Below, one piece after another: positions 4,788 to 54,928 of a stretch of 64,000 bases of DNA. The position numbers and the translations under genes were made by a program. Within the stretch, counting starts at the first letter, position 1, and each line of letters begins with the position of its first letter. This DNA comes from Eledone cirrhosa (Eukaryota). The stretch is taken from contig OZ024742.1 of NCBI GenBank assembly GCA_964016885.1, forward strand, positions 243,288,001 to 243,352,000. The letters are read 5' to 3'. The notes beneath the pieces were generated by a model. That model was not told where the DNA came from. It was given only the letters and a program-made list of their open reading frames with translations, and made no database searches.

Positions 4788-4974
4788 AACGAAGGTAGTG
4801 TGGCAAGGAACCAGGTGGACCATAACGCATCAGAGTACTCTATACTTAGGGTACTAGAGTGGGTAATAGGAAAATGTTCAAGACCCCGAGGGCAGAGCTC
4901 AGGCCGTTTCGACGGTTGAGGGACGGCATTCTCTGAGTTGAGCTCTGCCGTCGGGGCCTTGAACATTTTCCTAT
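4788..4974 (-). mobile_element. Fold-back Penelope-like miniature element, family B
   Basis: Lies between (TA)n tracts. Inverted arms 4866-4901/4939-4974 with a one-sided tail; homologous to 6243-6443 and 36518-36753. Confidence 0.65.
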
Positions 4975-5007
4975 ATATATATATATATATATATATATAT
5001 ATATATA

Positions 5008-5440
5008 TTTATTAAAATAACAAATTAAAGTTTAAGCAAAGAATCGCTGCTTTCACCCTTAACGGGATCTTCTGAAACTAACAAAGTCAATCTGTAAACG
5101 CAGAACTGGATATTTCAAAAAACGTTGCAACCGGAGGAAGACAGGAAGACGATACTTTGGTTCATGGTGACGTTCGCTGGCAAAGAACGGGAAAAAAAAC
5201 GAATAATACGTCATTAATAGGTGCGGTGAAAAACAATTACGTGCAAGGACAGAACCACGTTTGTGGTATAAAAGAGGTCGTAGACTAATGTTCTCTAAGT
5301 GGTGCATAGAGACGTTCTCTGGCAATGAACGAAAAAACGAAGATAATAAGTCATATGTGGAGCGTGGAGAACAATAGCACGCAAAGACAAAACCACGTAA
5401 ATGGTATAGCAGAAGTCGTAGACTAAAATTCTAACTAGGA
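5008..5440 (-). mobile_element. (TA)n-associated repeat family C (probable PLE 3' region) with an internal ~140 bp diverged direct repeat
   Basis: 5010-5120 is the reverse complement of 19410-19510 and 37615-37685. Related tail pieces lie at 5725-5768, 19600-19655, 37545-37590 and 38352-38470. Confidence 0.55.
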
Positions 5441-6022
5441 GACCGAATGAATCTCCGCTACAGAGTTAAGAACAAAGTAAATAAATACATTACAGAAGTA
5501 ATAGAAACAAATAAATACATACGCGCAAACAGATACGTACATACACAAGCATACGCAAAACCTTACCATAGGTATACAAAACCACGCACATATAAATATG
5601 TGTGTGTGTGTATGCTTGTGTACAAATAAATAAATAATTATATAAACGTATATAAGTAAATAAATACGTATATAACAAGCGCACACACATACCTACAAAT
5701 AAATACACGAAGGTTCGGAGACGTAAGCCCTCTCTGGATTTTAGTCTTCAATTTTATTATTATTACTATATATATATATATGATATAATATATATATGGT
5801 ATGGTCTCGTAACTCCTGAGAATGATACAAAGTGAGAGAGAGAGGAAGCGAGAAAGAGATGTCGAGGAAGAATCGACCTCAGCACTTGACTGGTATTTTT
5901 TTATCGACCTCGAAAGAATGAAAGGCAAAGCTGACCTCTGCAGGATTTGAACTCAGGTAGTGCAGATTCGGAACACAAAGCATTCTGACGTTCTATATAT
6001 ATATATATATATATATATATAT

Positions 6023-6224
6023 ACGTTATTCCGGGTTGAATCGGGGGTAACCACGGTAAGTAAGGTACTCAATACATAGCAGAGTATAAAAGTTTTAATA
6101 TAGATGAGATTCTACAGGACTAGAACTGTTTCATTCTTAAGAAATCATGAGGAATCCCGATTCCTGATGATTTCTTAAGAATGAAACAGTCCTAGTCCTG
6201 AAGAATCTCATTTATATTAAAACT
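6023..6224 (-). mobile_element. Fold-back PLE-like element, family A, with hammerhead-like core
   Basis: Arms 6091-6156/6159-6224. Core CTGATGA-TTTCTTAAGAAT-GAAAC...GTC at 6164-6197. Homologous to 25853-26013 and 4690-4745. Confidence 0.65.
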
Positions 6225-6242
6225 ATATATATATATATATAT

Positions 6243-51179: not shown

Positions 51180-51780
51180 ACAGTGGGTCGGTAGAGGGTC
51201 GGACGCCATTCTTTGCAGCATAGAGTTACGGCCCTTTATGATCTGAGTTCAAATCCCGCCGAGGTTAACTTTTCCTTTCATCTTTACGGAGTCGATAAAA
51301 TAAAGTACCAGTTCCGTACTGGGGTCGATTTAATCAACTTCCCCCTCCCCAAAAATATGCTGGCCTTGTGCCTTGTGCCTAAAGTAGAAACAATTATTAA
51401 TAAATTAGTATATGGCGGTGAATTGGCAGTATCGGTAGAGGGTCGGACGCCATGCTTTGCAGCATAGAGTTACGGCTCTTTACGGTCTGGGTTCAAATCC
51501 CACCGAGGTTAACTTTGCCTTTCATCCTTACGGGATCGATAAAATAAAGTACCAGTAATGCACTGGATCATTATAATCGATTTTCCCTTTCCCTTCAACT
51601 TGCTGGCCCTGTATCAAAGGTAGAGACAATTATTATTGAAGTAAAGGCGTTGGCTTGGCTTGGCAGTATCGGTAGAACATCGGACAATATACTTTGCGGC
51701 ATATAGTTACGCCCCTTTACGCTCTGAACCAGCTGGTAATTTGCTGGCCTTGTGCCAAAAGTAGAAACAATTATTAATAA
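51180..51780 (+). mobile_element. Cluster of three tandem tRNA-SINE copies
   Basis: Repeated consensus head-to-tail. Similar clusters at 53130-53480 and 60480-61105. Confidence 0.8.
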
Positions 51781-53759
51781 ATTATTTATTCTGTATGTAA
51801 AAAAAAAAAAGAATTACTCATCAATGATGCTACTCTGTGCTCTACCCTCAATACTAGTTAAGTTGTCTTTCAATGTAACTGCTTCAAATTTTTGCGAAAA
51901 TGAAATTTATTCCTGCTCGTCTGTGTGCCTGCACACGAACGTGTCGATATGTGTATGTCGGTTTATGTAAACACGTGGCAGCAGGGGTTTGTTAACTTAC
52001 TTCTTCCAATTGAGATGCAAATAATTACTACTGTTAAAGACCATATGTTTATTAATAATGTTAATATAATAACTATATCACCACATATATATCTATTCAT
52101 CTAAGTATATGTTATATATTTAATCTAATGTAGTGCAAATGTGTGGAAAATTTGCACCACAGCATCCGGAATTCTTCATCAGAACTGTGTTGTAATGAAT
52201 TGCGTGCAAATACAGTTCTTCTTAAGAATAGTGCAAAGATGGTAGGAAAAATAGCAATGAAATGGATAGAAATATAAAACAGAGAATTGGGGTGTTAAAG
52301 GGAGTTGAACTAATCGCAAAAATATTAATTTAAATTTCAGAATGTTCTCCCCTGCCTTCCTTGACCAAAATTAATCGTATTTTTTCTGTCCTACATGAGT
52401 AATTTTGATTGATATTTATTGGTCTACTGCATTGCCTATGTTAGCAACGACTTAAATAATATGTATAAAACCTTGTTATTACTCTGAGGATCACAAGCAT
52501 CGAGTAGGAATGTCGTTGGTCAGATATAGGAGATATATATATTATTACATAACATACAAAATAACATCCACAGTGAAAAACTGTGTTTCAGTTGACTTGG
52601 CAAAGATAGAGAGTTAGTTTTCTTTGATCTTTTTTACGGGATATTAATAAACGAATAGCATAAGAAACTATGATCTGTGCAAAGTATTAAAAGTTTTAAA
52701 GCTTTAATTTTAAAAAGAAAATCGAAAGAATATATTTATTTTGAAAAAATATGTTCCTTTTTCCTCCTGTATTTTGAAATATGTATTATGGTAAAGTATA
52801 TGGCTTGCTTGGCCTGGAGAGGGATGAGCTCTGCCAGACTTTAAAATGCCCAAGAAACGCCGTGTGTCAATATGGCGTCCCTACTCTATGAGGAGTTACG
52901 GGACCATACATACATATGGCTTGCTTGTCTAGGATATATGGAGAGAGAAATGGAAACAAAACGATGGCGTATTAGGTTAGGCAACGTTCTTTCTTGCGTA
53001 ATTGGTTTTAGAAAAAAAATTGAAATTCATTGAACACGAAACAACATGCGGGGGAATTATATAAAAACATAATGAATTACCAATATTTCACCGATAACCT
53101 ATATTATTAGGAGACCTATATTATTACGGTTGATTGGCAGCATCGGTAGCGCGTCGGACACCATGCTTTGTAGCACAGAGTTACGGCCCTTTATGTTCTG
53201 AGCTCAAATCCCGCCGAGGTTAACTTTGCCTTTCATCCCTACGGGGTCGATAAAATAAAGTACCAGTAATACACTTGGATGATTGCTGGTCTTGTGCCAA
53301 AAGTAGAAGCAATTATTTTTCCAAATCGTGGGCGGCGGATTGGCTCTATCGGTAGCGCGTCGGACACTATTCTTTGCAGCATAGAGTTACGGCCCTTTAC
53401 GGCCTAAGTTCAAATCCCGCCGAGGTTAACTTTGCCTTTCATGCTTTAGGGTCGATAAAATAGAAACAATTATTATAAAATAGAAACAATTAGTACGAAA
53501 CAGTAAAAACAGCGTTTTGTTCGGAACTTGTTAAAAATATACTTATTGCTCTTTAAAATGTGCACTCTTACGAAATCCATTGAGTCCAAATGTTAGAAAA
53601 TAATTGTTTTTACTTTTGGCACAAGGCCAGCAATTACCTCAGTGCATTACTGGTACTTTATTTTATCGACCCCGAAAGACAAAGTTTTTGCTCCCAGTGT
53701 ATTCAAGTGGGGAAAATGAATTGTACTTGTAATTCAAACCACTATCCTTACCACACACT

Positions 53760-53924
53760 CGGTGCTGGAATTACCATTGTGCTTAGGTGTACTTAAGCAC
53801 AAGGTCCCTTTGGCTAGGGGCGCCCATCTTCCTGTCAAAAACATTTTTTACCTCTTTCAGGGCCCAAGTTAGGGGCCTCAAAACTTAACTACACAGGGCC
53901 TCATTTGTCCTAAATCCAGCGCTG
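53760..53924. mobile_element. hAT-type MITE
   Basis: TIRs CGGTGCTGGAATTA/TAAATCCAGCGCTG; 8-bp TSD CACACACT (53752-53759, 53925-53932). Confidence 0.8.
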
Positions 53925-54706
53925 CACACACTGGATCACACTGAATTTCCCTAAGAACTAGTTTAATGGTATATGTGCCTGAGGAATGCTCAGCTACTTC
54001 ATGAGCTGGCTGTTCCATTGTTCGAACAACTGAAACACTCGTCGTCAGAATTGACGGAGATCCAACACACACACACACACACACACACACACACACACAC
54101 ACACACACACACACACGCGCGCGCGCGCGCGCGCACATACACACGCACACACATATACGCACATACGCACACATTACGCAATTAAATCAGTAAATTAAAG
54201 AGATTTTCATTGAGATTAAATGTATTAATTTATAGGCAGTGTGTCACCTACTTGTTCATTTTCTATTGGTTGTTGGACTATTACAGTTACTACATTCCAC
54301 TAGTGGGGAACTTGAGAGGTATATCTACTCAACATTGATGCAATGATACCAACAAACACTTGAACCTATTGGAATGTTTACAATTAATATATAAAATGAG
54401 TTTGCCATGCATACTTCCGCAAATTAAGTTATACACTTAACACAGCATGGTATTCATGGAACCAATTTGTATCATTTCTATAAAGAAATCACATATATAT
54501 AATATACTTTTAGTATTTAGCTAGTTTTAGGCATAAGCTCCTGGCCATTCTGGGGCACCGTCTTCAGGGGATTAAATCGATTATATCAATCCAGCATTTT
54601 TTCAGATCTAGTACTTTTTGTCGAACCGTTACATAAACAAATAGTAAACACACGCACACACACACACACACATATATATATATATATATATATATATATA
54701 TATATA

Positions 54707-54928
54707 GTGGTAGAACACTGGAAGGTAATATCCGTAGTGGTAGAGCACTCAGTCCATGGGACGAGTTAGGTACAAGTGGTTACACAACAGTTAGTTCACC
54801 ATACCGAGAACAATTGTTTCACCTTAGCGGATCCTCAGCTTGTATAACCATGTCCATTACGAGCTGAGGATCCGCTAAGGTGAAACAATTGTTCTCGGTA
54901 TGATGAACTAACTGTTGTGTAACCACTT
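54707..54928 (-). mobile_element. Fold-back PLE-like element carrying a hammerhead on each strand
   Basis: Arms 54774-54844/54858-54928 and tail 54707-54773; flanked by (TA)n. Confidence 0.75.
54858..54900 (+). ncRNA. Minimal type I hammerhead ribozyme motif
   Basis: TACGAG-CTGAGGA-TCCGCTAAGGT-GAAAC-AATT-GTT-CTCGGTA. Mirror copy on the minus strand at 54802-54844. Confidence 0.75.

Follow-up and report, generated by a model that had tools for sequence, protein, structure and literature searches.

A shared octamer in the tails of short (TA)n-flanked elements of Eledone cirrhosa and its possible role as a PLE signal

The octamer GAGYRCTC appears to form the conserved core of a 65-82-nt tail module in at least nine families of short elements of E. 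cirrhosa, and it may well be part of an RNA signal that positions a Penelope-like element (PLE) reverse transcriptase at two alternative start sites. This reading, to which we give a probability of about 0.45, draws on comparison of the tails and on analogy with a published PLE. The octamer keeps its distance from the microsatellite junction in families whose tails otherwise cannot be aligned, and two classes of junction bracket it.

Occurrence of the octamer and its distance from the junction

In the window, that is, the whole stretch of 64,000 nucleotides analyzed here (contig OZ024742.1, positions 243,288,001 to 243,352,000), GAGYRCTC occurs exactly 10 times, against 1.2 expected (1.20 ± 1.14 in dinucleotide-preserving shuffles), and none of 100 such shuffles attained 10 (Table 1). 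The original prediction had named 11 sites as exact or one-off matches. Seven of these are exact and two are one-off (GAGTACTT at 6391 and CAGTGCTC at 38671); however, those at 6063 and 25887 (AGGTACTC, which is GAGTACCT on the element strand) are two-off, and the exact sites at 17364, 22591, and 36040 were absent from the list. The sites at 17364 and 22591 are additional element tails. The site at 36040 has no microsatellite within 60 nt, and we therefore take it as the approximately one chance match expected. The four variant sites lie about 34-45 nt from the junction, as counted by eye.

The near-fixed distance that had been claimed for the window is seen as a positional peak both there and in an independent sample, which consisted of 100 segments of 10 kb (1 Mb) at fixed round coordinates on nine contigs of the same genome, with the window left out. 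This sample contains 49 exact octamers, and 37 of them are no more than 150 nt away from one of the 2947 junction flanks; 20 of the 49, all among those 37, lie 30-49 nt from a dinucleotide-microsatellite junction. When all 4096 patterns of the form NNN-Y-R-NNN were scored by the number of multicopy flank clusters holding each at 25-60 nt, GAGYRCTC ranked second, with 5 of 123 clusters; two control windows gave 0 and 1. By extrapolation, approximately 20 octamer tails per Mb correspond to natural insertion products on the order of 60,000 in the genome.

Architecture of the elements and divergence of their tails

The octamer is carried by short non-coding elements that are flanked on both sides either by (TA)n itself or by a (CA)n, (GA)n, or (CT)n tract that adjoins (TA)n. 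Between its two (TA)n tracts, a typical unit has an inverted head B, followed by a variable centre, a second head B, and finally tail X. Families A, B, C, and E have an inverted partial copy on the upstream side, and its centre differs between copies that are otherwise 91-97% identical, which indicates that the arm is formed afresh with every insertion. In 80 of 82 inter-microsatellite segments, tail X is confined to one end; the two exceptions are short segments that were counted from both sides. Together, (TA)n, inverted arm, and one-ended tail constitute the PLE insertion footprint, a point on which the original interpretation is supported.

The octamer lies inside X, between two alternative junctions of element and microsatellite. 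The downstream class of junctions is mostly 34-48 nt from the octamer (full range 28-58), and the upstream class is 16-29 nt from it: 27-29 in family A (at least 10 copies), 21-24 in E (3 copies), 16-28 in D (3 copies), and 28 in C (1 copy). Module B contains hammerhead-like core boxes. By pattern match only, CTGANGA..GAAA with a short helix II and a helix III is present in families B, D, and E, and the head of family A has a half-core that lacks the CUGAUGA box. These heads are alike within groups (A, I, and the type at 40250; C and E), and the head of family I aligns with that of family A. No carrier was recognized as a hammerhead by Rfam at the gathering score, and there was no match at E ≤ 5 in 6024-6442.

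Table 1. Element units, tails, and octamer sites in the window (positions are those of the window; distances run from the octamer end to the microsatellite junction)
Feature	Coordinates	Strand	Octamer	Distance (nt)	Details
Family A unit	4789..4971	-	exact, 4833-4840	44	junction with (TA)n 4743-4788; inverted arm stops at (TA)n starting 4972
Family B unit	6024..6223	-	two-off, 6063-6070 (GAGTACCT on element strand)		tail X 6024-6100, then palindromic pair of hammerhead-like heads (CTGATGA at 6164)
Family A unit, GAGTACTT subfamily	6246..6442	+	variant, 6391-6398		
Family H tail	14556..14623	+	exact, 14588-14595	28	junction with (AT)n
Family C unit	16247..16550	-	exact, 16292-16299 (GAGTGCTC on element strand)	45	junction with (TA)n; inverted repeat 16320-16373 / 16496-16550; other end 16541 corresponds to point 28 nt upstream of octamer
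Family F tail	17316..17400	-	exact, 17364-17371	48	junction with (GA)n-(TA)n tract
Family I tail	22562..22656	+	exact, 22591-22598	58	junction with CT-rich tract
Family B unit	25853..26041	-	two-off, 25887-25894		adjoins (GA)n; CTGATGA..GAAAC at 25982, element strand
Octamer only	36040..36047	.	exact		no microsatellite junction inside 60 nt
Family A unit	36521..36751	+	exact, 36703-36710	41	(TA)n tract on either side; arm (inverted) 36521-36572, then centre of 50 nt, head B from 36623, and tail X ~36675-36751
Family C-like unit	38500..38719	+	one-off CAGTGCTC, 38671-38678	~41	junction with (AC)n-(AT)n tract
Octamer-less relative	40250..40418	+		~43 (TTGTACTGCC)	hammerhead-like core CTGATGA-AGGGCTTATGCCC-GAAAC, then tail with TTGTACTGCC near (TA)n; homologous to end of abundant L002-type PLE
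Family J tail	45145..45221	+	exact, 45172-45179	42	junction with (TA)n
Family D-like unit, ~110 nt	46779..46887	+	exact GAGCACTC, 46839-46846	41	junction with tract
Family E head-to-head unit	54707..54927	-	exact, 54743-54750	36	junction with (TA)n; long copy (tail X 54707-54786) and short inverted copy, whose end 54927 corresponds to point 24 nt upstream of octamer

The 31 exact tails formed 12 BLAST clusters, three of which are the same short elements seen from the other side; thus, there are nine families, and variants of the motif occur in two more, B (GAGTACCT) and K (GAGCCCTC). Ungapped identity between families is 26% over the 25 nt downstream of the octamer and 32% upstream, and despite this low downstream identity 9 of the 11 families keep an octamer-to-junction spacing of 34-48 nt. 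In the MAFFT alignment, the near-invariant columns are those of the motif, plus two isolated columns. Apart from the octamer and an A at -3, the tails share nothing but a box farther upstream (ACTCTRC), which most families have. Where at least five families with dissimilar tails had initially been proposed, there are at least nine with the exact motif, which neither BLAST nor MAFFT could align. In the 20 copies of family A, X is the part that varies least, with a minor fraction of 0.06-0.08 vs 0.22 in the B module. Eight of these 20 copies carry GAGTACTT, and a change in the motif is tolerated in abundant lineages of A (GAGTACTT), B (GAGTACCT), and K (GAGCCCTC).

The families are nonetheless related to some extent rather than independent inventions: most have the ACTCTRC box, the module order, and hammerhead-like heads in common, so that descent from a distant common ancestor, combined with constraint, is the more probable history.

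A putative RNA signal and competing explanations

A box that could pair with GAGY co-varies with Y: it is GCTC in the Y=C families (D and K) and ACTC in all seven Y=T families that have the box. The covariation involves two families, and one D-like copy (46822-46846) does not conform to it. In six families (A, B, C, D, E, and H), as assessed partly by eye, three or more further pairs of differing sequence can be added to the closing stem. The pairing box was not found in families I and J, and only a distant one was found in F, G, and K; RNAalifold predicted 0 pairs from an unsupervised alignment of 11 tails. The MFE z-scores of the tails range from -2.4 to +1.1, and the p values of the inner-stem shuffles from 0.04 to 0.8. 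The putative hairpin, with its limited covariation, supports an RNA signal, but the evidence for a conserved structure is weak. The hairpin model leaves the retention of the second half of the motif (RCTC) unexplained.

In vitro, an Anolis PLE cuts and extends both strands, and its reverse transcription begins internally, at two sites (Frangieh et al. 2024, PMC11167929). As described there, the PLE tail is the sequence between the two starts, and a protein-binding RNA motif near the start is required; the account of the in vitro system reports this nearby RNA requirement without naming the motif. By analogy, the two junctions that bracket the octamer mirror this published tail. If the enzyme acts here as the Anolis Poseidon PLE does, it would nick both strands of AT-rich DNA and extend both. 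Priming of one strand at the far end of X would yield a copy that keeps X and could move again, and priming of the other at the B/X border would yield an inverted arm without X. Both cDNAs would meet at the 5' end of the RNA, which would account for the variation of the centre among copies. The enzyme would use the octamer and its hairpin as a handle between the two start sites, and we propose that, as a consequence, only lineages retaining the octamer and its spacing keep multiplying. A stronger version, which is possible although rather doubtful, would make the octamer hairpin the anchor of a (TA)n-targeting PLE RNP and a molecular ruler, a template-boundary-like element from which cDNA starts either ~25 nt 5' or ~40 nt 3'; the handle would be inherited only from far-site starts, and a dozen unrelated-looking parasites would share the eight bases and the spacing through convergence or constraint.

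The octamer might instead be a duplex-DNA site at which a dimeric PLE protein or GIY-YIG endonuclease recognizes resident copies and cuts nearby AT-rich DNA, so that new copies adjoin old ones. Both half-sites are indeed conserved around a degenerate pyrimidine-purine centre (GAG-YR-CTC), and GAGCACTC (family D) and GAGTGCTC (C, E, F, G, and I) are the same site flipped, a symmetry that suits a symmetric DNA binder and would account for the retention of RCTC. According to PMC11167929, which cites earlier work for the first point, recognition and cleavage by the D. virilis Penelope endonuclease required the tail, and the Anolis protein is a predicted dimer. However, B, K, and the GAGTACTT subfamily depart from the symmetry, a duplex site does not account for the way in which the upstream box co-varies with Y, and a repeat end is no more frequent on the far side of octamer-tail microsatellites (21 of 59, 36%) than for other multicopy ends (240 of 519, 46%); we consider this explanation unlikely. 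Somewhat less probable still is shared descent without present function, in which the octamer and the box would be the last recognizable remnants of one ancestral PLE end. The families do share module order, box, targets, and, in related groups, hammerhead-like heads, and an autonomous PLE type has a homologous tail that lacks the octamer. Yet octamer and spacing persist in at least nine families while their flanks are at random identity, the motif is GC-richer than its 64% A+T genome and ranks near the top of like patterns, and X is the least variable part of family A across subfamilies.

Two further roles fit the data less well. RNA-RNA dimerization, which the original prediction had included, would have the palindrome pair two template RNAs, one for each strand of the cut target. 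GAGUACUC is self-complementary, as is GAGUGCUC with G-U pairs, and the heads contain palindromic loops (GAGCUC in family A) of a kind that lets minimal hammerheads act as dimers, as reported in PMC4209133. Nevertheless, GAGCACUC (D), GAGCCCUC (K), and GAGUACCU (B) lack full-word self-pairing although these families are abundant, and half of the word is already paired in the hairpin reading, which makes dimerization a poor fit and improbable. It is more improbable still that the octamer faces the host as a transcription factor site or promoter element for transcription of the copies. A palindromic 8-mer is a typical factor site, and PLE terminal repeats are said to contain a promoter (PMC11167929, citing earlier work); however, a module located 3' in copies that are single rather than tandem cannot drive the unit to which it belongs, and nothing connects its fixed distance from the junction with transcription.

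Relation to autonomous PLEs and other elements

[quoted passage not shown] There are 10,597 GIY-YIG candidates, and all 150 that were scored exceeded the cut-off; one PLE has RVT_1 and GIY-YIG in a 938-aa frame. The proposed check of the 3' tails of autonomous PLEs went against a common motif: the octamer was found in the element's own end at 0 of 40 loci examined, and among 559 junction flanks of 32 GIY-YIG loci the octamer tails were exclusively inserted copies of family A or K. In the most abundant type (L002-type), the tail is homologous and all 8 of 8 copies terminate with CTGTACCG in place of the octamer. Among multicopy flank clusters with both hammerhead boxes, only 1 of 14 contains the octamer. 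Since many PLE-type ends lack it, the octamer is not a general PLE requirement.

In stringent LINE/SINE pairs (eel UnaL2/UnaSINE1; CR1-type), the partners have a common 3' stem-loop and a short-repeat tail. The octamer carriers resemble them in that a non-autonomous element would borrow an enzyme by means of a structured, conserved signal whose distance from a repeat tail is fixed, whereas the enzyme in those pairs is an APE-type LINE. In our sample, LINEs with APE and RT (and PHD in some) end in (GAT)n without the octamer, and a partner LINE sharing the tail was not found.

The carriers agree with descriptions of PLEs, where the tail is at one end, an inverted copy is present, and (TA)n is the target (Craig et al. 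2021, PMC8557442). As in Hydra-clade and other (TA)n-targeting PLEs (Craig et al. 2021), the autonomous C-terminal GIY-YIG PLEs of this genome insert at (TA)n. Shared with published PLEs are the AT-rich target and the apparent use of both strands that results in an inverted partial copy, and a hammerhead-like motif lies ~50-100 nt upstream; the far ends of the tails are AC-rich by eye, and so is the published start region (PMC11167929). In contrast, the tail here is about twice as long (65-82 nt vs 30-40 bp), the carriers are short and non-coding rather than autonomous, with start sites deduced from junctions, and the tail descriptions in PMC11167929 and PMC8557442 include no near-palindromic octamer common to different families. 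The octamer had been thought to be undescribed, and a literature search with its string and "Penelope" gave nothing relevant among the matches listed, but the frame of the PLE tail is already in print (PMC11167929).

The carriers also resemble metazoan non-LTR retrozymes, which are short, abundant, and non-coding, have hammerhead-like motifs of type I, and are considered PLE-dependent (PMC7229834; 10.64898/2026.07.22.740005); the U-U mismatch at the base of helix II and the palindromic loop 3 are published features as well. Retrozymes are head-to-tail tandem arrays of a 170-400-nt unit that give circular RNAs (Cervera and de la Pena 2020, PMC7229834; Li, Clavereau and Pollet 2026 preprint), whereas the octamer-bearing elements of the window and the sample occur singly and have an inverted arm, and they also differ in the missing CUGAUGA box of family A and in the lack of Rfam recognition. 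That such retrozyme-like hitchhikers carry a PLE tail supports their dependence on PLEs.

With two junction classes bracketing one conserved word across many families, the octamer offers a defined mutational target for the hold of the PLE enzyme on its RNA. If it is a PLE docking site, it would provide a testable recognition signal for a poorly understood enzyme, and, if the signal is real, it would offer a compact handle by which cargo RNAs could be loaded onto a reverse transcriptase that is related to telomerase and targets microsatellites.

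The octamer at microsatellite junctions

The exact octamer GAGYRCTC occurs 10 times in the 64-kb window, against an expectation of 1.20 +/- 1.14 in dinucleotide-preserving shuffles of the window, none of which (0 of 100) reached 10. The original prediction listed 11 octamers or one-off variants, about 30-45 nt from the microsatellite junctions of element tails. Seven of these sites are exact and two are indeed one-off, but the remaining two differ at two positions and thus are not one-off variants; on the other hand, three exact octamers were absent from the list. One of these three has no nearby microsatellite and is consistent with the single chance match expected. 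In the nine exact tails of the window the octamer lies 28-58 nt from the junction, and in seven of the nine at 36-48 nt.

Octamer variants, junctions and neighbouring features in the window and elsewhere (L-numbers denote stretches of the genome outside the window; PLE, Penelope-like element)
Feature	Position	Observation
Exact octamers, additional element tails	17364, 22591	
Exact octamer away from microsatellites	36040	
One-off octamer variant	6391	GAGTACTT
One-off octamer variant	38671	CAGTGCTC
Two-off octamer variants	6063, 25887	AGGTACTC; on the element strand GAGTACCT
Near junction, family A		27-29 nt upstream of octamer; at least 10 copies
Near junction, family E		21-24 nt upstream of octamer; 3 copies
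Near junction, family D		16-28 nt upstream of octamer; 3 copies
Near junction, family C		28 nt upstream of octamer; 1 copy
Near junction, family B		~22 nt upstream of octamer; by eye
Compound tracts	38720-38817, 46879-46957, 25796-25852, 22657-22756	element, short (CA)n/(GA)n/(CT)n, then (TA)n
Frame from the ATG in CTGATGA, 40250 element	40293-40418	open for 42 codons to the (TA)n junction
tRNA-like sequence	36777-36848	Rfam tRNA, 41.6 bits; directly after the (TA)n following a family A unit; probably the head of a tRNA-derived SINE
Similar partial tRNA match	L038:3039-3096	
Minisatellite, nearly perfect	36118-36398	18 nt x 15.6 copies (98% matches)
Minisatellite, nearly perfect	3589-3787	37 nt x 5.4 copies (96% matches)
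Near-perfect hairpin	62838-62943	106 nt; sub-threshold match to an Rfam plant miRNA family, 59.8 bits; resembles a MITE-type palindrome
Autonomous PLE, L002 type	L002:6683-8062, L143-L150	
Autonomous PLE type with minimal hammerhead-like motif	3' regions of L076, L080, L087	CTGAAGA-TTGC-GAAA-GCAT-GAAA-GTAC-TT; helix III is the palindrome AGUACU only; ~175 nt before the end ...GGAATTCCTCTTATTAA at (TA)n
Tail-less units of the palindromic head pair alone	L052:2560-2773 and neighbours	inverted B + B; (TA)n on the flanks, then inverted copies of another PLE end (..TATACTTGGGGAGGG..)
Abundant LINE	L025:6805-9999, L057:4267-7071, L044:859-3036, L035:223-1938, L039 (two copies)	APE endonuclease, RT and PHD finger; 3' ends ...GGACGTAAAATGATGATGATG, RTE-like (GAT)n tail; unrelated to octamer elements
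Uninterrupted open frame	L056:8074-9999	642 aa; four or more cadherin repeats (Pfam Cadherin, E 1e-62); resembles a protocadherin-type gene with a single exon

The same placement is seen outside the window. A 1-Mb sample that excluded the window, made up of 100 10-kb stretches placed at fixed round coordinates along nine contigs, contained 49 exact octamers; 37 of them were no more than 150 nt from a dinucleotide-microsatellite junction (2947 junction flanks in total), and 20 of these 37 lay at 30-49 nt. A prior pass over 600 kb and the window had placed 18 of 32 octamers at 35-49 nt. The recurrence near tail junctions is thus confirmed and extended, with a distance peak present in independent sequence. 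Exact k-mer discovery was drowned in low-complexity words, and degenerate patterns were ranked in its place: among 4096 NNN-Y-R-NNN patterns, ordered by the multicopy flank clusters holding the pattern at 25-60 nt, GAGYRCTC was second and the only one of the top six that is not A+T-rich. It stood at this distance in 5 of 123 multicopy flank clusters, compared with 0 and 1 in two control windows. Extrapolation from about 20 per Mb suggests, by order of magnitude, ~60,000 octamer tails across this 3.0-Gb genome.

Carrier elements and their tails

At least 1886 candidate copies belong to family A, and the 40 scored copies show 91-97% identity over ~155 nt; most of these have, directly upstream, a 55-nt inverted copy of their own first part. 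The full unit reads (TA)n, inverted head B, centre, head B, tail X and (TA)n, where module B contains hammerhead-like boxes and module X the octamer. The centre varies from a few bases to 50 nt among copies that are otherwise nearly identical; therefore, the inverted arm is made anew at each insertion rather than inherited. Copies consisting of B only, of B and X without the inverted arm, and of the hairpin only were also found.

The head of family B, which carries a variant octamer, reads CTGATGA-TTTC-NNNN-GAAT-GAAAC followed by a 4-bp helix III. The unusual helix II of this head, which has a basal U-U mismatch, is shared with an autonomous Penelope-like element (PLE) type of the same genome, and such a helix has already been published for axolotl motifs (PMC7229834). 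Family A retains only the GAAAC-helix III-GTC half of this core. Rfam detected no hammerhead at the gathering score in the window or in 14 loci, none at E<=5 in 6024-6442, and none at E<=10 in the window among the 150 of 291 matches listed, which were mostly microsatellite-like miRNA matches. Because Rfam calls none, the hammerhead label rests on these patterns and on the minimal PLE hammerheads described in PMC4209133. Placement of the octamer itself within a hammerhead (as helix III AGUACU-C or a displaced CUGAUGA box) was rejected by eye, as no GAAA or CUGAUGA is in register.

The 31 exact tails from the sample and the window formed 12 BLAST clusters (E<=1e-4), three of which were short elements seen from the opposite direction, so that nine families remain (A, C, D, E, F, G, H, I and J); the variant octamers are GAGTACCT in family B and GAGCCCTC in family K. 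The tails had been called otherwise dissimilar, and by ordinary criteria they are: between families, ungapped identity is 26% in the 25 nt downstream of the octamer and 32% upstream, and conservation in octamer-anchored tails is limited, beyond the octamer, to A at -3 and a pyrimidine at -2. Unsupervised MAFFT alignment registered 10 of 11 tails on the octamer, and nearly invariant columns were confined to it, plus two isolated columns. The families are not unrelated, however. Most have, 16-46 nt upstream of the octamer, a second box, ACTCTRC (D has GCTCTGT and K has GCTCTAC), which MAFFT did not align across the tails; furthermore, related heads are found in A, I and the octamer-less 40250-type element of the window, and in C and E.

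Junction classes and Penelope-like enzymes

Junctions between element and microsatellite fall into two classes, one at the far end of X and the other, in many copies, at the B|X border, the latter placed by aligning the terminal 30 nt of flanks lacking the octamer with full copies. This near site is invariably where the left arm of full units ends. X stands at one end only in 80 of the 82 inter-microsatellite segments holding an octamer tail, the two exceptions being short segments counted from either side. No copies end at the octamer itself, and the octamers outside the distance peak belong to unrelated sequence or interrupted microsatellites. It follows that the octamer forms the conserved core of a 65-82-nt module between two alternative ends. 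Tails often adjoin compound tracts, the first repeat of which may be either an outgrowth of the AC-rich element end or the original target.

These ends resemble those of the Poseidon PLE of Anolis. In Frangieh et al. 2024 (PMC11167929), the Poseidon protein, a predicted dimer, cleaves and extends both strands of AT-rich DNA; reverse transcription begins at two adjacent internal RNA sites, in an AC-rich stem-loop and without target homology, and the stretch between the two start sites is the genomic "tail". The RNA segment around the start is needed, a hammerhead lies ~90 nt upstream, and an earlier study cited there found that the Drosophila virilis endonuclease requires the tail for recognition. 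The E. cirrhosa units can be read as products of a Poseidon-type reaction, in which priming would occur at the far end of X for one strand and at the B|X border for the other, and both cDNAs would meet at the 5' end of the RNA. By eye, the last bases of X look AC-rich in most families. The present case differs in tail length and in that the carriers are non-coding hitchhikers. An inverted 5'-truncated copy and a 30-40-bp tail at one end were also described by Craig et al. (PMC8557442), who report that Naiad and almost all families of the Hydra clade preferentially target (TA)n. The ORF of the Anolis element begins within the hammerhead ATG (PMC11167929), and the corresponding frame is open in the 40250 element; as we read the sequences, it is closed by a stop at codon 4 in L002-type PLE copies and at codon 6 in family B, and these early stops led us to reject coding constraint as a general cause.

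A six-frame Pfam search of the genome yielded 10,597 GIY-YIG candidates; all 150 that were scored exceeded the cut-off, and long frames join RVT_1 to a C-terminal GIY-YIG. The long open PLE frames of this genome include ones of 1096 and 938 aa. Several distinct PLE families terminate directly at (TA)n. The highest PLE count in these searches (14,500 candidates) belongs to the autonomous L002 type, whose copies are 79-89% identical over the endonuclease part. In eight of eight copies, a hammerhead-like core lies ~130 nt from (TA)n, and the conserved end comprises an internal (CA)n, CTGATGA-AGGACTAGCGTCC-GAAAC, CATATACTGTACCGATTG and ...TTTTACA at (TA)n. This type is the closest autonomous relative of the family A layout; it has CTGTACCG ~33 nt from its end, and its short derivatives have TTGTACTGCC ~43 nt from theirs, both sharing only the GTAC core with the octamer. 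None of the autonomous PLEs in 40 loci had the octamer, and no autonomous partner was found via GIY-YIG loci, long ORFs, tblastn on the sample or the L002-type family. A LINE partner was rejected, as the APE-type LINEs of the sample are RTE-like with (GAT)n ends.

What the octamer may do

The best-supported reading is that the octamer is part of a signal by which the enzyme would hold the RNA between two start sites. Between families the sequence has decayed to random, and the word and its spacing are kept. Across subfamilies of family A, X is the least variable part (0.06-0.08 versus 0.22 in B; 20 copies). GAGY is able to pair with the upstream RCTC box, and the two covary: the box has G in the two families with Y=C (D and K) and A in the seven Y=T families that possess one. 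In A, B, C, D, E and H the stem can be extended, partly by eye, by at least 3 pairs of differing sequence. On the other hand, RNAalifold found no consensus pairs in the unsupervised alignment, MFE z-scores were unremarkable, and inner-stem shuffles gave p = 0.04-0.8. The box is missing from families I and J, one D-like copy departs from the covariation, and abundant lineages have GAGTACTT (in family A, 8 of 20 copies), GAGTACCT or GAGCCCTC; a hairpin also leaves the conserved second half of the octamer unexplained. Furthermore, the octamer is present in just 1 of 14 flank clusters having both hammerhead boxes, as well as being absent from the autonomous PLEs of the 40 loci.

The symmetric GAG..CTC with its YR centre would be accounted for by a duplex-DNA site for the PLE endonuclease, for which there is a precedent in print. 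We nevertheless consider such a site unlikely, because the far side of microsatellites is occupied in 36% of cases beside octamer tails versus 46% beside other repeat ends, and because the box covariation would be left unexplained; octamer-directed homing was rejected on the same percentages, there being no excess of neighbouring insertions. Shared descent alone, with an octamer devoid of function, fits the common architecture, yet it seems quite unlikely given that word and spacing are kept against randomised flanks. An RNA dimerisation signal, one of the options in the original prediction, fails for families D, K and B and is very unlikely, and a promoter role, in favour of which this analysis gave nothing, is highly improbable. 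The proposal of a reverse transcriptase signal thus stands in part: word and spacing are kept across families, whereas no octamer-bearing autonomous PLE was found in the 40 loci.

The carriers are PLE-dependent, retrozyme-like hitchhikers, that is, previously undescribed elements of established kinds. The octamer was also said to lack a description, and for the combination of octamer, box and cross-family spacing the literature searched agrees, with nothing relevant among the matches listed for the octamer string with "Penelope"; the surrounding frame, in which a PLE tail lies between two start sites, has been published. The octamer provides a concrete and testable candidate cis signal for a poorly understood class of enzymes.
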